Shown here in pieces: positions 357 through 8,592 of a stretch of 37,246 nucleotides of DNA. The stretch covers positions 1-37,246 of the forward strand of contig JBBTWM010000013.1 of NCBI GenBank assembly GCA_038062795.1. Direction: 5' to 3'. The notes beneath the pieces are model-generated. The model ran no database searches, had not been told where the DNA came from, and saw only the letters and a program-made list of their open reading frames with translations. Both the position numbers and the translations under genes were made by a program. The DNA comes from Patescibacteria group bacterium (lineage in GTDB: Bacteria > Patescibacteriota > Microgenomatia > UBA10105 > UBA927). The first letter of the stretch is position 1. Each line of letters begins with the position of its first letter.

Positions 357-2960
357 TCAGGGAGTAGGAGAAGGCGTAGGACTGGCGTAGACCTGATTAA
401 TCCCCACATGAATTTCCCGTTCGCTCGACGTACCCCGTTTATCCGTTGCTTTAACTTTGATGATGTGTGAGCCGTTTACGATAGTGATTGTTTCGGAAAT
501 CGACTTCTCATTGCTCTTTTCCCTGACTTTATTTCCATCGACGAATAGTTCAAACTTCTCGATGTCAGCAGTCGAAATCGCATTGGCTTCCACTGTTACG
601 GAATTATTATCGATCCGCTCATTATCTCCGGGCTTTTTTACCTGTAGCACCAATTGGTTGGAGTCGCCTCCGCTGTACGTTTCTGTCGGTGCTTTGTATT
701 TACTGTCGGCAGAGGCTATCCAGGCATTAATGCCGTCCTGCCACCGGTTTTTCCCGTCACCGGACACCGGATCGTCTTCGTGCAGCACAATAAATAATTT
801 CTCGTCGTAATCGCCGGTTGCAACTTCCACGCTATTCGCAAGTTTATTGTTGTCTTTGCGGGATACCTTCAGCTTCTGGTAGATAGCGGCAGGACCGGTG
901 GGCTCTGTGCCCTTGATAAAAAACTCCTTCCGCGTCGGCTGACTCTCAAACGGTAAACCGCCGCCAAACGCATCGATATCCATCTCTATAACTCCCTCGG
1001 GTCGGTCAAACGGCTCATCCTGCATATTTTTGATTGCCTCCCGCATGATGCGGTTCCAGATGGGGGCAGCCCCGGTTACCCCGGAAGCGAGTGTCGGGCT
1101 CATCGGGGTATTATCATTATTGCCGACCCAGGTAAGAACGACGCGGCTTTTGGTGTACCCGGCCGTCCAGTTGTCCCGCTTGTCATCGGTTGTTCCGGTT
1201 TTGGCCGCTACCGTTTTACCGGATATGACCAAATAGGATTTGAGCCCAAACACTTCTTTGCGTGCATCATTATCGGAAAGGATGGAGGAAATAATAAAAG
1301 CTACATCCGGCTCCAGCTCATCACGGGAAGCAGACGGCTTATATTCATAGAGCGTTTTGCCTCCGGCATCCGTAACTTTCAGGATGGCTACGGAGTCCAT
1401 GCGTTTGCCCCCGGTCGCCAACACGCCGAAGGCCGTTGCCATATCCATCATCGTAACTTCTGCTCCTCCCAGCGGCAGGGAAAGCCCCACCCTTCTCAAG
1501 TTCGCATCGCTCGGCTCCCAGGTCTTGAGGCCCATCGCGTACCCCAGTTTCAGCACATCTTTGACCCCGTCCAGGGCGGCAACTTTTACCGCGATCGTAT
1601 TTATGGAATTGGCGAGTGCGTACCGCAGTTGTATAGGGCCGCGGTATTTATTGTCATAATTTTTCGGATTGTATTCCGGTTTGGCCGGATCTCCTGACGG
1701 ATATTTGGTTTCCACATCCATGAGCATGGATGAGGCGGTGTATCCGCGGGTCAATGCTGCGGCATAGATAATGGGTTTGAGCGTACTTCCCGGCTGCCGC
1801 AAGCCCTGCGTGACGACGTTAAACTTAAGGCCCGAACTGTCCGTCGCCGCATAATCCTTGCTGCCTACCATCGCAAGTATTTCTCCGGTATGGGGATCGA
1901 GTACGACGGCAGCTCCATTGCTTACCTTCAGTTTCTTGGCTTTTTCGACCTCTTCTTTTACCGCAAGCTGCGATGCTTCCTGGAGCGACCAATCGAGCGT
2001 CGTCGTCACCGTGAGGCCGCCTGCGTTCACTATTTTTTCGCCGAAACGATCAATCAGCAATTCTTTGATGTAGGCGACAAAATGCGGCGCGCGCAAACTG
2101 GCGTCACCGGAGGCAAAGGTCATCGTGTCCATTTGCTTGCGGGCTTCACTTTCCTGAGCGGGCGTAATAAGCCCTTCCTCGCGCATACGCCGGAGCACAT
2201 GAGCTGTTCGGTCTTTGTATGCGCCCTCTGTACCCGTAAACGGTGAGTAGTAACTCGGGGACTGGGGCAATCCGGCTAAGATAGCCGACTGAATGAGCGA
2301 CAAATCCTTTACCGGCTTGTCGAAATAATGTTCTGCGGCGGTTTTGACCCCGACTGCAGTGCCGCCATACGGCGCTTCATTCAGATACATGAGCAGGATG
2401 TCATTTTTGCTGTATTTGCGTTCAATCTGAATGGCGAGCACCGCCTCTTTCATTTTGCGGGGAAGCGTACGCTCCTGACTTAGCAGCACATTTTTCACTA
2501 ATTGTTGGGTAAGTGTCGACCCTCCCTGGCAACGCCTCAGGAAAACGCACGCGATCATGCCGCGCATGATACCGGTCGGGGATAAACCCTGGTGTTTGTA
2601 AAAATCCTTGTCCTCGACGGCAACGGTCGCATCTTTCAGGTATTGGGGAACTTCATCCCAACCGGCCGGAATTCTGTTTGCCTCCTCAAAAATGTCGTAC
2701 AGCTTCTCTCCGTTGCGGTCGAGCACCACCGTGGAGAGCCCTTCCCGCCGCTGCACCTTGTCCGGACGGGGCAAATCCTTGGCATACCAGGCAAACAAAA
2801 TACCGGTAAATAATATGAGGATGATAAACCCTATAAACCCGCCGTACGCCACGATACTCCAAACTTTCATGCGGGATACTGAGGGTCCAAACAGCTTTCG
2901 CCGCTGCCGCTCGCTAAAGAGTTCGTACATAAAGGTATTGTACTGAATTCTTGCACGCAT
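357..2960 (-). CDS. Bifunctional class A penicillin-binding protein (PBP1A-type transglycosylase/transpeptidase) with C-terminal Ig-like module
   Basis: N-terminal TM helix (VWSIVAYGGFIGFIILILFTGILFAW). GT51 motifs EDKDFYKHQG, GGSTLTQQLVKN and RKMKE. Transpeptidase motifs STLKP (SxxK), SIN (SxN) and KTGTT (KTG). Beta-rich C-terminal domain and PTPSPTP tail. The track start at 2966 is TTG; the first ATG is at 2960. Confidence 0.9.
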   Translation of the reverse strand: MRARIQYNTFMYELFSERQRRKLFGPSVSRMKVWSIVAYGGFIGFIILILFTGILFAWYAKDLPRPDKVQRREGLSTVVLDRNGEKLYDIFEEANRIPAGWDEVPQYLKDATVAVEDKDFYKHQGLSPTGIMRGMIACVFLRRCQGGSTLTQQLVKNVLLSQERTLPRKMKEAVLAIQIERKYSKNDILLMYLNEAPYGGTAVGVKTAAEHYFDKPVKDLSLIQSAILAGLPQSPSYYSPFTGTEGAYKDRTAHVLRRMREEGLITPAQESEARKQMDTMTFASGDASLRAPHFVAYIKELLIDRFGEKIVNAGGLTVTTTLDWSLQEASQLAVKEEVEKAKKLKVSNGAAVVLDPHTGEILAMVGSKDYAATDSSGLKFNVVTQGLRQPGSTLKPIIYAAALTRGYTASSMLMDVETKYPSGDPAKPEYNPKNYDNKYRGPIQLRYALANSINTIAVKVAALDGVKDVLKLGYAMGLKTWEPSDANLRRVGLSLPLGGAEVTMMDMATAFGVLATGGKRMDSVAILKVTDAGGKTLYEYKPSASRDELEPDVAFIISSILSDNDARKEVFGLKSYLVISGKTVAAKTGTTDDKRDNWTAGYTKSRVVLTWVGNNDNTPMSPTLASGVTGAAPIWNRIMREAIKNMQDEPFDRPEGVIEMDIDAFGGGLPFESQPTRKEFFIKGTEPTGPAAIYQKLKVSRKDNNKLANSVEVATGDYDEKLFIVLHEDDPVSGDGKNRWQDGINAWIASADSKYKAPTETYSGGDSNQLVLQVKKPGDNERIDNNSVTVEANAISTADIEKFELFVDGNKVREKSNEKSISETITIVNGSHIIKVKATDKRGTSSEREIHVGINQVYASPTPSPTP

Positions 2961-2979
2961 TGACAATGCATGCTATACT
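2951..2979 (+). promoter_or_regulatory. Candidate sigma70-type promoter for the aromatic leader/operon: TTGCAC-17 nt-TATACT
   Basis: TTGCAC at 2951-2956, exactly 17 nt of spacer, TATACT at 2974-2979. The -10 ends 9 nt before the leader-1 ATG (2989), which has no Shine-Dalgarno, so the first leader would be leaderless or nearly so. Confidence 0.45.
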
Positions 2980-2988
2980 TCTCAACGT

Positions 2989-3060
2989 ATGAATCGTCAA
3001 GGCAACCGCTATTTCTTTTATTTTACTCCATTCCTTGGAGGGGTTGCTGTGATGTCATAA
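2989..3060 (+). CDS. Leader peptide 1 (23 aa, MNRQGNRYFFYFTPFLGGVAVMS), Phe/Tyr-rich attenuation leader
   Basis: ATG 2989 to TAA 3058-3060. Codons 3010-3033 read Y F F Y F T P F. The ORF is followed by terminator 3083-3106 and sits directly upstream of the Phe/Tyr biosynthesis genes. It resembles the E. coli pheL leader in style. Confidence 0.6.
   Translation: MNRQGNRYFFYFTPFLGGVAVMS
3033..3047 (+). promoter_or_regulatory. Antiterminator strand 1 (pairs with 3081-3094)
   Basis: CCTTGGAGGGGTTGC (3033-3047) forms 13 Watson-Crick pairs, with one A.G mismatch and one bulged T, with GCACCCCGCCAAGG (3081-3094). That covers the entire 5' arm of terminator 1, so the two folds are mutually exclusive. 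Confidence 0.5.
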
Positions 3061-3082
3061 CCGCATCGCAAGAAAAATAAGC

Positions 3083-3106
3083 ACCCCGCCAAGGCGGGGT
3101 TTTTTT
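3083..3106 (+). terminator. Intrinsic terminator / attenuator 1
   Basis: ACCCCGC-CAAG-GCGGGGT hairpin (7 bp, 6 of them G:C, tetraloop) at 3083-3100, running into T7 at 3100-3106. Confidence 0.75.
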
Positions 3107-3126
3107 GTGGGGAAAAGGGAGAACAT

Positions 3127-3216
3127 ATGAAATCAATAAAGCAATTAGACACAGTCGTGTATACATTTACCTATTTTTATGCCGTACCAACGGGGAGGTT
3201 CATGCGGCAAAAATAA
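3127..3216 (+). CDS. Leader peptide 2 (29 aa, MKSIKQLDTVVYTFTYFYAVPTGRFMRQK), Tyr/Phe-rich attenuation leader
   Basis: AAGGGAG Shine-Dalgarno at 3115-3121, 5 nt before ATG 3127; stop TAA at 3214-3216. Codons 3160-3180 read Y T F T Y F Y. The ORF is followed by terminator 3240-3265. Confidence 0.6.
   Translation: MKSIKQLDTVVYTFTYFYAVPTGRFMRQK
3193..3200 (+). promoter_or_regulatory. Antiterminator strand 2 (pairs with 3240-3247)
   Basis: GGGAGGTT (3193-3200, inside leader ORF 2) is perfectly complementary to AACCTCCC (3240-3247), the 5' arm of terminator 2. Confidence 0.45.
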
Positions 3217-3239
3217 GTGAAAAAAAATAAAACGCAACA

Positions 3240-3265
3240 AACCTCCCTTAAGCGGAGGTTTTTTT
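3240..3265 (+). terminator. Intrinsic terminator / attenuator 2
   Basis: AACCTCC (3240-3246) pairs with GGAGGTT (3254-3260) around a 7-nt loop, followed by T7 at 3259-3265. It shares the 3' string TTTTTTTGTGG(G/A)G with terminator 1. The stem is weaker than in terminator 1. Confidence 0.55.
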
Positions 3266-3279
3266 GTGGAGGAATAACT

Positions 3280-4101
3280 ATGAAAAACATTGAACGATCA
3301 TTACAAATCATTGCAGGACCTTGCGCGGCAGAATCCCGCGGACAGATGCTTGCCACAGCCGAGGCAGCCTTGTCACGCGGTATCGATACGGTGCGTATGT
3401 CGCTGTGGAAACCACGCACCAGGCCGGGATTTGAAGGTATAGGAAATCGGGGTATCCCGATATTTCTTGAGATAGCCGCTATGGGAATACGGCCGGCAAC
3501 GGAGGTACTGCTGCCTAAACAGGCCGAGGCTGTATTAAACGGCACAATAGGCAAAGACAGTAATGCACGCGTTCTTTTGTGGCTTGGGTCACGGAACCAA
3601 AATCATCTGATTCAGCGTGATATCGGCTCCGTTGTCGCGAACAATCCGCGTGTCCAGCTGATGATCAAAAATCAGGTTTGGAAAGACCGGGCCCACTGGG
3701 AAGGTATCGTCGAACACGTCGTTGCGGGAGGGGCATCACCCGACCAACTGCTGCTGTGCCACAGAGGCTTCGGACCGCCATCCGCGCGGCTCCGTAACCC
3801 TCCGGACATGAAACTTGCGCTCGAAGTCAAGGATGCAATCACTAAGGCGCATGGAAGGGATGTGCCGCTCATACTGGATCCTTCCCATATTGCCGGCAAA
3901 TCACCGGAGAATGTCATGCGTGTCGCGTTCAAATTATCAGGACAACGACTCGCAGTTGATGGCAGGACACTTGGGATTGACGGCATGATTATCGAAACGC
4001 ATCCTAATCCGGAAACAGCCCAGACCGATAAAAATCAACAGTTAAGTTGGCATCAGCTTGATGGGCTGCTTGCTCGTTTATCGAAAAGGGGGGCGGTATG
4101 A
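3280..4101 (+). CDS. 3-deoxy-D-arabino-heptulosonate-7-phosphate (DAHP) synthase, type I-beta, catalytic barrel only (273 aa)
   Basis: Motifs IIAGPCAAES, LWKPRTRPGFEGIG, LDPSHIAGK and IETHPNPETAQTDKNQQL match the I-beta DAHPS signatures (GPCxxES, KPRTSP..F.G, DPSH, E.H.P..A.SD). GGAGGA SD at 3268-3273 lies 6 nt before ATG 3280. The track's GTG start at 3217 would read through the terminator. Confidence 0.85.
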   Translation: MKNIERSLQIIAGPCAAESRGQMLATAEAALSRGIDTVRMSLWKPRTRPGFEGIGNRGIPIFLEIAAMGIRPATEVLLPKQAEAVLNGTIGKDSNARVLLWLGSRNQNHLIQRDIGSVVANNPRVQLMIKNQVWKDRAHWEGIVEHVVAGGASPDQLLLCHRGFGPPSARLRNPPDMKLALEVKDAITKAHGRDVPLILDPSHIAGKSPENVMRVAFKLSGQRLAVDGRTLGIDGMIIETHPNPETAQTDKNQQLSWHQLDGLLARLSKRGAV

Positions 4102-4295
4102 AAGAAATGGAAATTCCCAAGAAACGGGATACAAAAGTCACTCGTATTATTTCCGGCAAACCGGTTATATCCCGTGAGGGAAGAATTATCGGGTGGGCAG
4201 TTACGGACGGATCTTTGGACTATATGCAACCGGGAAAGGAGGATATATGGATCGAAATAAAACCAAAACAAAAGAAAACACCAATACGTCCATAG
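4098..4295 (+). CDS. Hypothetical 65-aa ORF bridging DAHP synthase and pheA (uncertain)
   Basis: Its ATG overlaps the DAHPS stop (ATGA at 4098-4101) and is preceded by a GGGGGG run. It fills the only gap in the operon and overlaps the pheA start by 49 nt. I recognise no family. Confidence 0.3.
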   Translation: MKEMEIPKKRDTKVTRIISGKPVISREGRIIGWAVTDGSLDYMQPGKEDIWIEIKPKQKKTPIRP

Positions 4296-5119
4296 CATGT
4301 ATGGGGCTTGACGGGTCATTTGGCCATATTGTGGCCCGGCGGCTGCACCCGACGGGTACGATCGTGTCACATACGTCTATAGATAACGTCGGGCGGGCAG
4401 TGGCAAACGGGGAGTCTGCGGTGGGGGTTTTGCCGATAGAAAATTCAACAGCCGGCACGATACAGGAAACATTTGATACGCTGCTACGGAACAACCTCTC
4501 CATTGTCGGGGAGCGGTTTTTGCCGGTCGTACACCATCTGCTTGTGCGCAAAACTCAGTTCGGCGCCGCAGCGGTACAACGAAATGCGATCAAAACAATT
4601 TTGTCGCACCCGAAAGCATTTGAGCAATGCCGCCTTTTTTTGGAAACCCTGCCGAACGCAAAGTTAATCATGGTCCATGATACTGCAGATGCGGCACGGC
4701 GAGTAGCTATGGACCCCGATTCCGGGTTGGCGGCGATTGCAAGCCAAGAGGCGGCACGTGCGCACGGGCTTCGGGTGCTTGTTGGCAATATCCACAGCAA
4801 CCCGGACAACTGTACCCGTTTCGTCATCGTACAAAAACGGCGAAACGGCGTACTCGGCACCAAAGCAACAATCAGTGCGGTACTACCGCATATTCCGGGA
4901 AGTTTGCACCGGCTTCTCGGATCGTTTGCGGCACATCATCTGAATCTGACGCACATAGAATCGCGGCCGATCGGAAGTAAACCATGGGAATACCGGTTTC
5001 TTATCGATCTTGATATCGGCAAAGATACCCGACTATTCCAACGGTCTCTGCTGCAGGCGCGTTCGATTGCCACCACAATAACGATACTCGGCATATATGA
5101 CAAAGGAGTACGTCTATGA
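4247..5119 (+). CDS. pheA: Prephenate dehydratase (PDT domain plus C-terminal ACT domain)
   Basis: N-terminus IACMGLDGSFGHIVARRL (the typical IAYLGPxGTFS pattern), TRFVIV, and ACT-domain signature ESRPIGSKPWEYRFLIDLD. AAGGAGGA SD precedes ATG 4247. Confidence 0.9.
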   Translation: MDRNKTKTKENTNTSIACMGLDGSFGHIVARRLHPTGTIVSHTSIDNVGRAVANGESAVGVLPIENSTAGTIQETFDTLLRNNLSIVGERFLPVVHHLLVRKTQFGAAAVQRNAIKTILSHPKAFEQCRLFLETLPNAKLIMVHDTADAARRVAMDPDSGLAAIASQEAARAHGLRVLVGNIHSNPDNCTRFVIVQKRRNGVLGTKATISAVLPHIPGSLHRLLGSFAAHHLNLTHIESRPIGSKPWEYRFLIDLDIGKDTRLFQRSLLQARSIATTITILGIYDKGVRL

Positions 5120-5400
5120 ACACAAACGCGTCTGCAACATTAGTCCGCTTGCGGCATGAAATCGACGCCGTCGACCGACGGCTGCTCATGCTCATGGCAA
5201 AACGGCAAAAACTTGTTTTGGAAGTCGGGAAACAGAAAAGGACAAATGGGATTCCTGTTACGGATATTGGCAGAGAACAGGTGATTATCAGTGTCTTACA
5301 GAAGCAAGGCAGAATACTCGGCCTGACGGATGCATTCATCCGGGGCCTCATGACGATAATTTTCAAGGAATCGAAGCGCGTACAGAAAGGGAAGATATGA
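5116..5400 (+). CDS. Chorismate mutase, AroQ class (94 aa)
   Basis: LVRLRHEIDAVDRRLLMLMAKRQKLVLEVGKQK is the canonical CM_2 helix-1 pattern (R..ID..D..L..L...R). ATGA overlap with the pheA stop; AAAGGAG SD at 5102-5108. Confidence 0.85.
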   Translation: MNTNASATLVRLRHEIDAVDRRLLMLMAKRQKLVLEVGKQKRTNGIPVTDIGREQVIISVLQKQGRILGLTDAFIRGLMTIIFKESKRVQKGKI

Positions 5401-6269
5401 AGAAAAACGACAGACAAACCATCGGCATTATCGGACTGGGTCTCATAGGGACCTCTATCGGCATGGCGTTGAAAAAGAGTGACACCGCAATCCGGATTAC
5501 GGGCTTCACGCGGTCAAGATTAAACGGCACGCATGCTTTGGAAAAAGGTGCGGTGGATACCCTCAGTGTAACGGTCGCAGAACTCATCGGAGCCACGGAT
5601 ATCATCATACTTGCAACACCCATACATGCCATCATCACATTACTTGCACATATCGGCGCTTGTGCGCACTTGCCGATACTCGTGACGGACACCGGCAGCA
5701 CAAAAGTCGAAATATGCAAGGCGGCGCTACGGTTACCTGCCCATATCACATTCATCGGCGGCCATCCGCTGGCCGGAAAAGAGGTAAGCGGCGCCAACCA
5801 TGCAGAAGCGACGTTGTTTAAAAACCGACCCTGGATTCTCACTCCCACTAACACACGTGACCGTGCGCATCTTTCCGCGTTACGCTCACTCCTTGCTCAA
5901 ACAGGCGCACATCTGCTGGAAATATCGCCAAAGGATCATGACCGGATTATGACGCCCATCTCCCACATGCCTTTTCTCATTTCAGCACTTCTAATGCAAA
6001 CCACACAGACGCACCGTGATTGGCCGGAAGCTAAGGAGTTAGCCGGAAACGGATTCCGCGATACAACACGACTGGCAGGCGGCAATCCGGTAATGCACAC
6101 GGATATTTTACGGACCAACCGTATGGAAATGATTACAGAGCTCTCCCGGATTGAGAAACAAATACGGAGTTTCAGGCAGGATCTCGCCGCCCGGCGTTGG
6201 TCCGCGATTGAAGACCGACTGCGCACTATACAAAAAAACCGACTGGATTGGGGAAAGGATCGTGTATGA
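5397..6269 (+). CDS. tyrA: Prephenate/arogenate dehydrogenase
   Basis: Rossmann N-terminus IGIIGLGLIGTSIGMALKK, then GGHPLAGKE and the following helical domain. ATGA overlap with the chorismate mutase stop. Confidence 0.85.
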   Translation: MKKNDRQTIGIIGLGLIGTSIGMALKKSDTAIRITGFTRSRLNGTHALEKGAVDTLSVTVAELIGATDIIILATPIHAIITLLAHIGACAHLPILVTDTGSTKVEICKAALRLPAHITFIGGHPLAGKEVSGANHAEATLFKNRPWILTPTNTRDRAHLSALRSLLAQTGAHLLEISPKDHDRIMTPISHMPFLISALLMQTTQTHRDWPEAKELAGNGFRDTTRLAGGNPVMHTDILRTNRMEMITELSRIEKQIRSFRQDLAARRWSAIEDRLRTIQKNRLDWGKDRV

Positions 6270-7375
6270 AACCAACCTCATTCGTTAAACATTTCCTGTC
6301 ACATAAACCGGCTTCCTACATTCCGGCCGCCTCAGCGATGCCGGTTCATCATAATTTCGCAGCACTCGAAAACGATTTCGGTATCAGTCCGTTTGTTGCG
6401 AAAGCGTGGCGATTGCTTGATCCTAAGTTCCTAACACACTATCCGGACCGCAATGCGAAAGCACTCAAAAACGCCGTCGCTGCATGGCTTGCGGTAAAGC
6501 CGTCCATGATTGCCTTAGGCAACGGCAGTGACGAGTTGATATCTCTTATTGCGCAAACGTTCGTCGAACCGGAGCATGCGGTCGTTATCCAAACACCGAC
6601 GTTTTTCCGGATTATTGAGGCGGTACACAAAGTGAAAGGCCTCGTCATCGAAGTTGCTGCGGACCGGACTATCGGATTTGCCTTGGATAGGGATATATGC
6701 CGGAGGATTATTGATGCGGCAAATGAGCACCATGCATCGGTCATTTGGCTTTGCACGCCCGATAATCCAACGGGTGCGGTCCTTGACCGCAAACACATTG
6801 CATGGATTCTTACCCACACGAAGGCACTTGTCGTAGTTGACGAAGCCTATCAGGAACTTTGTGACCCGCGGAACCGACAGTCGGCGATTCACTTATTGCG
6901 GTCTCATAAGAATCTCATAGTCACCAGAACATTCTCCAAAGCATTCGGCTTGGCGGGCGCCCGCGTGGGAATGCTCATCGCGCAGCCGGAGGTCATTGAG
7001 ACTATAGACGCCTGGCGGCTCAATTTTCCGGTATCCCACGTATCTCTTGTGCTCGCGGAGGCCGCACTCAAGGATACCCGGCATCTTATCCGTATACAGA
7101 AAATGGTTGCAAAAGAACGTGCCTGGCTCTTTCGTGCCATCCGGAAATTACCGGATCTGGAAATCGGGGCTTCATCGCATACGAATGTTTTTTTACTGCG
7201 CCATAAAACCAAAAATATTCATGCGTTATTACTGCATGAAGGAATACTCACTGCAGACTTTAACCGGATGAACGGATTAGAACATATGCGTTTTGTGCGT
7301 ATCACGGTGAAACAACACAAAGAGAATCTGGCGTTGATTAGCGCTCTTACCAAATTTTGTAGAAGCGGAATATAA
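6266..7375 (+). CDS. hisC: Histidinol-phosphate / aromatic-amino-acid aminotransferase (class II PLP enzyme)
   Basis: YPD motif, GNGSDELI, DEAY, and PLP-lysine motif TFSKAFGLAGARVG. ATG 6266 overlaps the tyrA stop (ATGA). The operon context suggests it makes Phe/Tyr from phenylpyruvate and 4-hydroxyphenylpyruvate. Confidence 0.8.
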   Translation: MKPTSFVKHFLSHKPASYIPAASAMPVHHNFAALENDFGISPFVAKAWRLLDPKFLTHYPDRNAKALKNAVAAWLAVKPSMIALGNGSDELISLIAQTFVEPEHAVVIQTPTFFRIIEAVHKVKGLVIEVAADRTIGFALDRDICRRIIDAANEHHASVIWLCTPDNPTGAVLDRKHIAWILTHTKALVVVDEAYQELCDPRNRQSAIHLLRSHKNLIVTRTFSKAFGLAGARVGMLIAQPEVIETIDAWRLNFPVSHVSLVLAEAALKDTRHLIRIQKMVAKERAWLFRAIRKLPDLEIGASSHTNVFLLRHKTKNIHALLLHEGILTADFNRMNGLEHMRFVRITVKQHKENLALISALTKFCRSGI

Positions 7376-7404
7376 TTCATTTGTGCTATAGTAAAGGAGC
7401 AATT

Positions 7405-8592
7405 ATGGATGCAATTGAAGAATTACTGACTCGTGGAGTCGAAAATATTATCCCGAACAAAGAAAAGCTTCGCTCGCTGCTTGCCAGCGGCAAAAAGCTG
7501 AATGTGTATTTGGGCATTGACCCCACAGCCACCCAGATCCACATAGGACATGCAGTCCCCTTGAGGAAACTCAACGCATTCGCCGAGCTCGGACATAACG
7601 TCACATTTTTGATCGGCGACTTTACCGCGCTTATCGGCGATACCTCCGACAAAGATGCGGAACGGCCGGTACTAACCAGTGAACAAATCAGGACCAACTT
7701 TGAAACGTATAAAAAGCAGGCAGAAAAAGTCCTGGATTTTTCTAAGGTAATGGTCAAATTCAACAGCGAATGGCTTCAGAAACTGGCATTTGCGGACATT
7801 GTGAAACTTGCCCAGCATTTTTCTGCCGGGGAATTTGTCAGCCGGGAACTTATCAAAAAGCGTCTCACGGAGGGCAAAAAAGTAGGACTTCATGAATTGC
7901 TGTACCCCGTCATGCAGGGATACGACAGTTACTATATGGATACGGATATCCAGCTGGGAGGAACGGATCAAACGTTTAACATGCAGGCTGGCCGCATTTT
8001 ACAAAAAGATCTCCGTACCAAAGAGTCGTTTATCATCGCCAACGGATTCCTGGAAGGGACCGACGGCAGAAAAATGAGTAAAAGCTGGGGGAATGCCATT
8101 TGGTTAACCGATGAACCCAATGAAATGTTCGGGAAAGTGATGTCGTTACGGGATGAATTAATTATTCAATACTTTACCTTGGCGACAAATGTTTCTATGG
8201 ACGATATCGAAACGGTAAAGAAACGCTTGGCAGATAAAGAAAACCCCATGGTGTTAAAAAAAGAACTCGCGCGCCTCTTGGTGAAAGAGCTCCATTCTCC
8301 TCAAGCGGCTGACTCCGCCAATCAGGAATTTGAAACACGGTTTCAAAAAGGACAGATAGCACAGTCCGACTTGCCAAAGGTTTCCCTCAATACGCTCAAA
8401 ACGGGCAGCCCCATCGCTGATACTCTTGTTGCGTTCGGCCTGGCTTCGAGTAAGTCAGAGGCCAAGCGCCTCGTGGAGCAAAAAGCAGTAAAAATAAACG
8501 GCGTTCCCGCACAACTTTCCAAGACTCCGGTACCACTGCACCCCGGGGATACTATTGAAGTCGGGAGAAAAGCTGTTACAATAACAACATAA
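7405..8592 (+). CDS. tyrS: Tyrosyl-tRNA synthetase with C-terminal S4-like domain
   Basis: HIGH motif (IHIGHAVPL), KMSKS motif (GRKMSKSWGNAIW), and C-terminal S4-like LASSKSEAKRLVEQKAVKING. AAAGGAG SD at 7393-7399 precedes ATG 7405. Confidence 0.95.
   Translation: MDAIEELLTRGVENIIPNKEKLRSLLASGKKLNVYLGIDPTATQIHIGHAVPLRKLNAFAELGHNVTFLIGDFTALIGDTSDKDAERPVLTSEQIRTNFETYKKQAEKVLDFSKVMVKFNSEWLQKLAFADIVKLAQHFSAGEFVSRELIKKRLTEGKKVGLHELLYPVMQGYDSYYMDTDIQLGGTDQTFNMQAGRILQKDLRTKESFIIANGFLEGTDGRKMSKSWGNAIWLTDEPNEMFGKVMSLRDELIIQYFTLATNVSMDDIETVKKRLADKENPMVLKKELARLLVKELHSPQAADSANQEFETRFQKGQIAQSDLPKVSLNTLKTGSPIADTLVAFGLASSKSEAKRLVEQKAVKINGVPAQLSKTPVPLHPGDTIEVGRKAVTITT

Follow-up and report, generated by a model that had tools for sequence, protein, structure and literature searches.

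The systems closest to the one described here are leader-peptide transcription attenuators of the kind of Escherichia coli pheL-pheA. They are not confined to Proteobacteria, where an earlier note on the DNA studied here had mostly placed them: classical examples are known in Actinobacteria too (PMC1262725), and in Corynebacterium glutamicum the aroR leader, with a Phe-Tyr-Phe sequence, precedes aroF, a gene for DAHP synthase (Neshat et al. 2014, as related in PMC11802643). A pair of small open reading frames (ORFs), mgtM and mgtP, forms tandem attenuators in the leader of Salmonella mgtCBR, a ‘singular example’ in the words of its authors (PMC3641672), and mycobacteria have leaderless attenuators with polycysteine short ORFs, as outlined in bioRxiv 10.1101/834739 and PMC4633059. 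Here we analyzed contig JBBTWM010000013.1 of a Patescibacteria group bacterium (GCA_038062795.1), whose 37,246 nt we call the window and number throughout. Its intergenic gap 2931-3279 (349 nt), with a divergent PBP1A-family gene on one side and a DAHP-synthase-family (DAHPS) gene on the other, contains one putative promoter and two complete attenuator-like units. Each unit combines a small ORF bearing a run of Tyr/Phe codons with a predicted anti-antiterminator, antiterminator and intrinsic terminator.

Patescibacteria, or the candidate phyla radiation (CPR), are uncultivated, reduced-genome bacteria usually called biosynthesis-poor, and to our knowledge almost nothing is known about their gene regulation. 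In the limited literature collection that we searched, no paper on leader peptides or transcription attenuation in Patescibacteria or the CPR was found. From sequence comparison and folding models, we conclude that both units are very probably functional, classical ribosome-mediated transcription attenuators acting in series on an operon for Phe and Tyr that includes tyrS. That the ORFs are translated, where their transcript begins, that it terminates in vivo and that the switches respond to tRNA charging are points which we infer from these data.

The first unit consists of the following parts.

2989-3060, + strand: leader ORF 1 (ATG at 2989, TAA at 3058-3060), encoding MNRQGNRYFFYFTPFLGGVAVMS, with no Shine-Dalgarno (SD) sequence
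3001-3007, + strand: segment 1 (GGCAACC), which pairs with 3042-3048 to give the anti-antiterminator P1, present in the minimum free energy (MFE) fold and in RNAalifold
3010-3033, + strand: regulatory codon run 1, TAT TTC TTT TAT TTT ACT CCA TTC (Y F F Y F T P F), six aromatic codons out of eight
3026-3030/3036-3040, + strand: hairpin P2 (CTCCA/TGGAG), which hides part of segment 2 in the terminated fold
3033-3047, + strand: segment 2, the 5' strand of the antiterminator, CCTTGGAGGGGTTGC, which pairs with 3081-3094
3049-3054/3064-3069, + strand: hairpin H (GTGATG/CATCGC), with the stop codon of ORF 1 in its loop, nesting within the antiterminator
3081-3106, + strand: segments 3 and 4, of which 3081-3094 is common to terminator 1 and the antiterminator
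3083-3100, with T7 at 3100-3106, + strand: terminator 1, ACCCCGC (3083-3089)-CAAG-GCGGGGT (3094-3100), 7 bp, -14.7 kcal/mol

The second unit follows downstream.

3117-3121, + strand: Shine-Dalgarno GGGAG of leader ORF 2, read from the sequence
3127-3216, + strand: leader ORF 2, encoding MKSIKQLDTVVYTFTYFYAVPTGRFMRQK
3160-3180, + strand: regulatory codon run 2, TAT ACA TTT ACC TAT TTT TAT (Y T F T Y F Y)
3172-3215, + strand: anti-antiterminator hairpin, in which 3172-3177 and 3180-3186 pair with 3203-3209 and 3210-3215
3192-3200, + strand: segment 2, the antiterminator strand G-GGGAGGTT, with GGGAGGTT at 3193-3200
3239-3261, with T7 at 3259-3265, + strand: terminator 2, 8 bp with a 7-nt loop, (A)AACCTCC (3239/3240-3246)-N7-GGAGGTT(T) (3254-3260/61)

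Most of this anatomy had been proposed in the earlier note, and ORF 1 with its six aromatic codons in eight, terminator 1 and its T7, the GGGAG SD of ORF 2 and the perfect complementarity of 3193-3200, GGGAGGTT, to 3240-3247, AACCTCCC, are all present in the sequence. So are the 13 Watson-Crick pairs between 3033-3047 and 3081-3094, accompanied by one A/G mismatch (3039/3088) and one bulged T (3045); the antiterminator of unit 2 has 8-9 bp. Two elements are additional to that note: the conserved hairpin at the stop codon of unit 1 (3049-3054/3064-3069) and a strong anti-antiterminator hairpin in unit 2, whose 5' strand is the aromatic run itself (TAT TTT TAT GCC GTA), paired with ATG CGG CAA AAA TA around a loop that holds GGGAGGTT. 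The two gap hairpins are the strongest terminator-like sites on the + strand of the whole 37-kb window, terminator 1 being the strongest of all. Against dinucleotide shuffles, the folding z-scores were -4.1 for unit 1 and -2.6 for unit 2.

We then compared the alternative folds energetically. The terminated fold of unit 1 (P1, P2, H and the terminator) has -33.8 kcal/mol; when segment 1 is masked, the antiterminator with H nested inside it reaches -24.6 kcal/mol (MFE -28.8), against -20.4 kcal/mol for H plus the terminator. In unit 2 the hairpin plus the terminator gives -23.9 kcal/mol, and the RNA lying 3' of a ribosome stalled on the aromatic codons folds at -18.9 kcal/mol, compared with -10.3 kcal/mol for the terminator alone. 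Partition functions at equilibrium were also calculated with a 29-nt ribosome footprint placed at every codon. For unit 1, the probability of the terminator was 0.89 when no ribosome was present and at most 0.09 when the A site lay on codons 2-10 (through Tyr8, Phe9 and Phe10); it was 0.62 at Tyr11 and 1.00 from Phe12 to the stop codon. For unit 2 the probability was 0.94 when no ribosome was present, reached 0.00 solely for an A site on ACC-TAT-TTT-TAT (3169-3178), was 0.67-0.73 on 3160-3166 and was about 1 elsewhere. In all 24 units, from all lineages, the predicted switch from read-through to termination came within the aromatic run or at its end, and the stop codon was always placed so that a terminating ribosome would cover the antiterminator strand.

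The mechanism proposed from these values would run as follows. A single promoter (-10 at 2974-2979) would give a transcript whose first codon lies at, or a few nt from, its 5' end. With no ribosome on unit 1, segment 1 (3001-3007) would pair with the 3' part of segment 2 (3042-3048) and the terminator (3083-3106) would form; it would form as well when a ribosome reaches the stop codon (3058-3060) and lies over both segment 2 and hairpin H. Stalling at Tyr8, Phe9, Phe10 or Tyr11, for want of charged tRNA, a ribosome would mask segment 1 and leave 3033-3047 free to pair with 3081-3094, that is, the whole 5' arm and the loop of terminator 1, so that RNA polymerase would read through. In unit 2 the aromatic codons (3172-3186) would serve as the 5' strand of the hairpin that keeps GGGAGGTT (3193-3200) in its loop; stalling on them would melt the hairpin and let GGGAGGTT pair with the terminator arm AACCTCCC (3240-3247). 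Unit 1 leans slightly towards Phe and unit 2 slightly towards Tyr. As Tyr codons occur together with Phe codons in each of the two leaders, a lack of either amino acid should open both gates, and with two gates in series the read-through fractions would be expected to multiply, giving lower basal expression and a steeper response.

To see how far this arrangement is kept, we collected the DNA around 17 distinct Patescibacteria DAHPS orthologue loci (L numbers below), at 41-89% protein identity and including named Levyibacteriota and Daviesbacteria; among the names of the DAHPS homologues are Patescibacteria group, Levybacteria and Daviesbacteria, in agreement with the Patescibacteria-like genome that the earlier note had supposed. 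Profile scans of genome and metagenome contigs with a 19-protein DAHPS alignment gave, among the matches listed, mostly distant non-Patescibacteria loci; the only clade members among these were L008, L088, L089 and L090, and the others were reused as negative controls. A fixed-rule detector was applied to the 400 nt upstream of DAHPS, asking for an ATG-started ORF of 10-45 codons, at least 5 Phe/Tyr/Trp codons in 8, and a hairpin plus T-run no more than 110 nt past the stop codon. It was positive at 15 of the first 16 Patescibacteria loci, at none of 16 reverse complements and none of 16 intragenic segments, and at 3 of 147 non-Patescibacteria DAHPS loci among the matches listed. The 17th locus, L179 (Daviesbacteria), was added later and also has a leader, MNISQVNYFWFTYFTPLREAS, with a terminator, which brings the count to 16 of 17. 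The leader ORFs at these 16 loci have 17-36 codons, an ATG start and at least 5 aromatic codons in some 8-codon window.

One could argue that an AT-rich intergenic region will throw up aromatic runs and hairpins by accident. Aromatic runs alone are indeed common, the six-frame scan of the window giving 29 clusters with at least 5 aromatic codons in 8 and 4 clusters with at least 6 in 8, and we therefore rejected the run by itself as insufficient evidence. Chance is nevertheless refuted by conservation in 16 lineages against 0 of 32 controls and by the permutation of cognate and non-cognate strands described below, and it is opposed by the compensatory pairs and the folding z-scores; we regard it as a negligible possibility.

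The number of units varies among the relatives. Both are kept in a close clade at 68-89% identity (L001, L003, L004, L168, L169, L170 and L173), the tandem pair being conserved at 8 close-clade loci, and no promoter-like site lies between the two units of the window. ORF 1 has in-frame orthologues at 9 further loci and ORF 2 at 8, with ORF lengths of 72-90 nt, and ORF 2 has GGAG-type SDs in L001, L003, L168 and L173 too. A single unit is found at L175, L176, L005, L088, L008 and L179. L089 carries two, quite unlike in sequence, and L090 probably carries two as well.

Within the runs, Tyr, Phe and Trp replace one another from locus to locus (YFFYF, FYFYF, YYFYF, YFFYYF, FSFWYY, FWFYF, YFWFTYF and YYFFYFYYF), and TTT alternates with TTC and TAT with TAC; the relatives' versions of run 1 read FYFYF, YLFYF, YSFYF, YYFYF, YFFYYF and FSFWYY. 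The ATG, the frame and the stop codon are preserved despite length differences of 3, 9, 15 and 18 nt, and the non-aromatic part of the peptide is free to diverge in distant relatives. These patterns are evidence for selection on the codons of the runs rather than on their nucleotides. Trp (TGG) codons occur within the runs of L008 (2371-2477), L179 (2850-2972), L176 (1747-1871) and L089 (1891-2190). The operons of L008 (aroB, aroQ, aroA) and L179 (aroB, aroA/K, aroE) belong to the common shikimate pathway, and leaders that precede pheA/tyrA operons have no Trp codons. The codon mix of the leader thus seems to follow the products of the operon, a correlation that is only partial: Trp codons are missing from the leader of L088 (DAHPS-aroB-aroA) and present in that of L176 (DAHPS-racemase-tyrS). 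As TGG is not U/A-rich, its entry into the runs argues for an amino-acid logic rather than a U-rich RNA motif.

This bears on whether the units might be real attenuators that run without translation, through an RNA-binding protein or uncharged tRNA as in TRAP or T-box systems, with the ORFs incidental. Such a switch would agree with the missing SD of ORF 1, and a U/A-rich aromatic run could in principle bind a protein. It would also find a parallel in L178 (58% identity), the sole locus without a leader ORF, which at the same position has a T-box (RF00230) at 2128-2422, with 94.2 bits against a gathering score of 93. In the window, T-box RF00230 gave no match even at E values up to 10 (threshold 93 bits), nor did any other non-leader Rfam family, at gathering level or weakly, and each unit spans only about 120-150 nt. 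Moreover, 16 lineages retain the ATG, the frame and the stop codon whereas the non-aromatic codons drift apart, TGG enters the runs of L008, L089, L176 and L179, and the stop codon always lies where a terminating ribosome covers the antiterminator strand. We thus consider a translation-free switch very improbable and keep to ribosome-mediated attenuation. As for L178, the specifier of its T-box is probably UAC (Tyr), so that, judging by sequence, one kind of sensor for tRNA charging has been swapped for another at a single locus.

Outside Patescibacteria, an aromatic leader ORF with a terminator was seen upstream of the DAHPS match at 2501 in L037, L053 and L080, which are from Cytophagales (MLNNQGRFYFYFYFSPRERVGPCITM), Gemmatimonadaceae (MPRMLATNFYFIWFFSGPTPGARSRAFV) and Desulfomonilaceae (MTNDLQASAFNSYYWWYFYVPAGG). 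Their scatter suggests sporadic occurrence, possibly with independent origins.

Conservation extends to the RNA structure. With eight close relatives, RNAalifold recovered P1, P2, H and the terminator of unit 1 unprompted, with 5 compensatory pairs and with H longer by one pair in the consensus. Two pairs each in P1 and H are changed on both sides. The pairing of GCAACC (3002-3007) with GGTTGC (3042-3047), a weaker pairing which the earlier note had offered as a possible anti-antiterminator, becomes GCAGCC/GGCTGC in L169 and is longer in L176 (9 bp) and L088 (8 bp); H reads GGTG/CACC in L001, GACG/CGTC in L004 and GTGGCT/AGCCAC in L169. All the cells of P2 (100%) are paired across relatives, an A-U pair turning into G-U in two of them. 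For the unit 2 hairpin, 80% of cells are paired over nine sequences, compared with 40-53% when the partners are slid, and RNAalifold recovered its core stem. A lower stem in the MFE fold of unit 1 (2995-2999/3050-3054; 2988-2992/3055-3059) was rejected: it is mismatched in L003, L004 and L168, and the competing hairpin H has compensatory changes.

Because MAFFT misregistered L169, L175 and L176 in unit 1 and the variable-loop terminators in unit 2, covariation between antiterminator and terminator could not be counted by column and was replaced by duplex energies and a permutation test. When the 3' region of each ORF was paired with the 5' arm of its terminator and compared with 1000 random windows of the same length from the same locus, 17 of the 24 units had a p of at most 0.02 and 22 had one of at most 0.06; in the window, the empirical values were 0.011 for unit 1 (with a shorter terminator-side segment that excludes the loop) and 0.007 for unit 2. 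Among 15 lineage-distinct units, cognate strands paired at -12.8 kcal/mol and non-cognate ones at -10.2 kcal/mol (permutation p of about 1e-4). Segment 2 and the two terminator arms also change three ways together, from GGGAGGTT with AACCTCCC and GGAGGTT in the window to GGAGGGTT with AACCCTCC and GGAGGGTT in L170 and to TTGGAGGGGTT with AACCCCTCCAA and GGAGGGGTT in L175. Measured from the end of the stop codon, the antiterminator strand has its 3' end 0-21 nt upstream, or 11 nt downstream in the case of L008.

Could the two ORFs instead be independent small-protein genes, for example for hydrophobic or aromatic peptides, that have terminators of their own and do not regulate the operon? ORF 2 does have a good SD and its own terminator, and the C-terminal GGVAV and TGRFMRQK are conserved in close relatives. 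The codons of these C-termini are, however, the RNA strands of P1, of the antiterminator and of the unit 2 hairpin, with compensatory changes of the RNA type, and in distant relatives the aromatic run and the RNA complementarity persist while the peptide sequence does not. Furthermore, the element always lies directly upstream of the DAHPS gene, and past terminator 2 the operon lacks a promoter of its own, with an SD that begins 3 nt after the T-tract. Small-protein genes are even less probable than a translation-free switch.

Regarding the start of the leader transcript, we point to the following element.

2951-2979, + strand: putative leader/operon promoter, with -35 TTGCAC (2951-2956), a 17-nt spacer and an extended -10 TGCTATACT (2971-2979, hexamer 2974-2979)

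The pattern TTGCA..N..TGnTA(T/G/C)ACT stands at a fixed position in L001, L003, L004, L168, L169, L173, L175, L176 and L005, and 2951-2979 would on this comparison be the leader promoter. The consensus scanner missed it, its -35 agreeing at only 3 of 6 positions. A TTGACA at 2960-2965 was discarded as the leader -35, being only 8 nt from the -10 and corresponding to the -35 (TTGTCA) of the divergent PBP1A promoter on the opposite strand. The ATG of ORF 1 lies 9 nt past the -10 hexamer in the window and 7-11 nt past it in every lineage, with no SD; given this proximity and the missing SD, the ORF 1 mRNA is probably leaderless or has a 5' untranslated region of no more than about 5 nt.

On the - strand, the divergent PBP1A promoter has a -35 TTGTCA (2966->2961), an 18-nt spacer, a -10 TACAAT (2942->2937) and, 6 nt further, the ATG (2930->2928), with the same geometry in L001, L003 and L004. 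The PBP1A gene thus appears to be leaderless too, which makes such initiation plausible for this organism; by the same geometry, the mechanically assigned PBP1A start (TTG at 2966) is about 12 codons too long.

Downstream of the second T-tract, an NCBIfam search assigned the genes that the units would control.

3268-3272, + strand: Shine-Dalgarno GGAGG of the DAHPS gene, beginning 3 nt after the second T-tract
3268-8592, + strand: the regulated operon as a whole (NCBIfam search)
3280-4101, + strand: DAHP-synthase-family gene (NCBIfam)
4098-4295, + strand: conserved 65-aa ORF, between the DAHPS and prephenate dehydratase genes
ending at 5119, + strand: prephenate dehydratase, pheA (NCBIfam)
5116-5400, + strand: chorismate mutase (NCBIfam)
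5397-6269, + strand: prephenate dehydrogenase, tyrA (NCBIfam)
6248-7375, + strand: HisC-type aminotransferase (NCBIfam)
7381-8592, + strand: tyrS (NCBIfam), after which comes recG

The consensus scan found no promoter-like site on the + strand from the leader to 7347. Given that no such site follows the terminators and that the DAHPS SD begins 3 nt past the T-tract, the operon must be transcribed through both of them. No other convincing leader-peptide attenuator, for any amino acid, was found across the window. The DAHPS-family protein falls far short of the curated cut-off of every NCBIfam model for DAHP or KDO8P synthases (at best 99.7 bits against a cut-off of 335). In the relatives' gene calls P0002-P0004, its N-terminus is stretched into the leader region (307-314 aa instead of 273); as leader ORFs and terminators lie there, we take these N-termini to be over-extended by the gene callers.

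The 65-aa ORF at 4098-4295 overlaps the DAHPS stop codon (ATGA) and precedes pheA. Its protein is 55-74% identical in relatives, has the motifs IIGWAV, DGSLDY and EDIWIEIKPK and no Pfam match, and may serve the aromatic pathway as a small subunit or a regulator that is as yet uncharacterised.

Some operons are reduced: that of L005 (3001-5108) consists of DAHPS-tyrS only, and that of L176 (1873-4490) of DAHPS, a gene of the amino-acid racemase family and tyrS. On this account, the constant partners of the leader are DAHPS and tyrS, not pheA and tyrA.

The position of the DAHPS SD opens another possibility, namely that control is mainly translational or works through mRNA stability, for instance with the CCTCC arm of hairpin 2 alternately masking the SD GGAGG (3268-3272). 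The arm AACCTCC of terminator 2 is in fact complementary to this SD as well as to 3254-3260. Against this stand the 6-7 T that follow the hairpins in the window and its closer relatives, and the T-rich runs in all others, which are the signature of intrinsic terminators, and the fact that unit 1 adjoins no structural-gene SD. We therefore hold control at the level of translation or stability to be very unlikely, and transcription attenuation to be the better account of both units.

In weighing that account, we considered several points that speak against it. All support is in silico, coming from anatomy, conservation, covariation and thermodynamics. The terminator and antiterminator strands are invariant in close relatives and give no covariation signal there, which is why they were tested by random-window duplexes and by the cognate/non-cognate comparison; they are also SD-like (GGAGG), and part of their conservation could have another cause. 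The footprint model ignores kinetics and permits pairing across the bound ribosome, it predicts read-through of unit 1 at any codon from 2 to 10 and not solely at aromatic ones, and it predicts only weak antitermination for unit 1 of L169, for L005 and for unit 2 of both L168 and L169. As to translation, that of ORF 1, which has no SD, hangs on the inferred transcription start, and its ATG, the 10th nt after the -10 hexamer, is slightly far for a strict leaderless start; the SD of ORF 2 is weak or absent in L004, L169 and L170.

The central proposal of the earlier note, two ribosome-mediated Tyr/Phe attenuators in series, is nonetheless supported by conservation, covariation and constrained folding. 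The in silico checks that it had suggested all point the same way: both units fold better than shuffled controls, the orthologue alignment has conserved ORFs, frames and aromatic runs with compensatory changes in the stems, and constrained folding predicts termination both in the absence of a ribosome and with one at the stop codon, but read-through when one occupies the aromatic codons.

The origin of the pair is less firm. The earlier note had read the GTGG(G/A)G ends as a sign of duplication, and this sequence is present directly after both T-tracts. Alignment of unit 1 with unit 2 gave z = 8.7 relative to mononucleotide shuffles, a null that is too weak as both units share a compositional layout; we therefore rejected their similarity as proof, convergence on the same layout being possible. 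The single units of L088 and L176 combine a P1 of the unit 1 type (GCAACC.../...GGTTGC) with a segment 2 and terminator of the unit 2 type (GGGAGGTT/CCTCCC), which fits an ancestral single unit that was duplicated and then diverged. From the sequences, duplication is plausible, not proven.

Taking these observations together, we think it fairly likely that aromatic leader-peptide attenuation is the default for DAHPS/shikimate operons across Patescibacteria (Microgenomates-type, including Levyibacteriota and Daviesbacteria). We would then be dealing with an RNA/leader family not described before, marked by a leaderless or near-leaderless first ORF, a same-signal tandem that acts as a two-gate amplifier and arose by duplication in some lineages, a Phe/Tyr/Trp mix that tracks the operon products, and exchangeability with a T-box. 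If so, it would be direct sequence evidence of tight transcription-translation coupling and fine metabolic regulation in reduced-genome CPR bacteria. The attenuator pair in itself offers a concrete, testable regulatory mechanism for Patescibacteria, and for these cells it would imply coupled transcription and translation, working intrinsic terminators and SD-less initiation at or near the mRNA 5' end. The same-signal tandem would be a natural case of two attenuators multiplied in series, the Tyr T-box of one relative would mean that tRNA-charging sensors are interchangeable at a single locus, and leader ORFs with terminators could be used as an annotation marker for aromatic-pathway operons in the CPR. 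The principle is not new; the regulatory system is clean, conserved widely and so far undescribed, and it belongs to a group of bacteria about which little is understood.

Finally, we set the locus beside the systems named at the outset. No Rfam family reached gathering level in the window. Phe_leader (RF01859) scored 24.9 bits on unit 2 and 19.4 bits on unit 1, under its threshold of 55, and all sub-threshold matches were to amino-acid leaders, namely Phe_leader and the Trp, Leu and Thr leaders. With scores so far under 55 bits and non-homologous sequences, the units would work like pheL without being members of RF01859. As in E. coli pheL-pheA (and trpL, hisL, thrL and pheST), codons for the pathway product form a run within their short leader ORFs. 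The units also share with pheL a set of pairings (1:2, 2:3 and 3:4) that exclude one another and finish with an intrinsic terminator and, as predicted here, termination both without translation and when the ribosome reaches the stop codon. They differ from it in mixing Tyr and Phe codons, where pheL has Phe only; in an operon that adds DAHPS, tyrA and tyrS; in placing two full units in series, the first ORF without an SD; in the use of the unit 2 regulatory codons themselves as the 5' strand of the 1:2 hairpin; and in the host phylum, Patescibacteria.

T-box leaders of aromatic and aminoacyl-tRNA synthetase genes in Firmicutes perform the same task, sensing tRNA charging for terminator read-through, whereas sensing here would go through a translating ribosome and not through direct tRNA binding. 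With C. glutamicum aroR, as far as the cited account describes it, the units share leader peptides on an operon that begins with DAHP synthase and control by ribosome stalling, which is predicted here. The same account sets aroR apart: it is one unit, belongs to an actinobacterium and is reported to respond to Phe and not Tyr, whereas the runs in Patescibacteria exceed it in length (5-8 aromatic codons) and are tandem. Salmonella mgtCBR likewise has two short ORFs in one leader mRNA, each with its own attenuation decision (predicted in our case), but its units sense different signals, ATP and Pro-tRNA, and act additively, while those of the window have the same kind of regulatory codons and each a canonical hairpin plus T7 terminator. 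The mycobacterial short-ORF attenuators, in the outline cited above, have an ORF at or near the mRNA 5' end that lacks an SD and senses the amino acid of the downstream operon, and unit 1, with its probably leaderless or near-leaderless start as judged from promoter geometry, would resemble them in this; amino acids and phylum differ. By comparing all of these, we can say that the mechanism itself is known classical attenuation, following the logic of pheL and aroR, and that what is new is its phylum-wide occurrence in Patescibacteria, the same-signal tandem and a first ORF that is probably near-leaderless.

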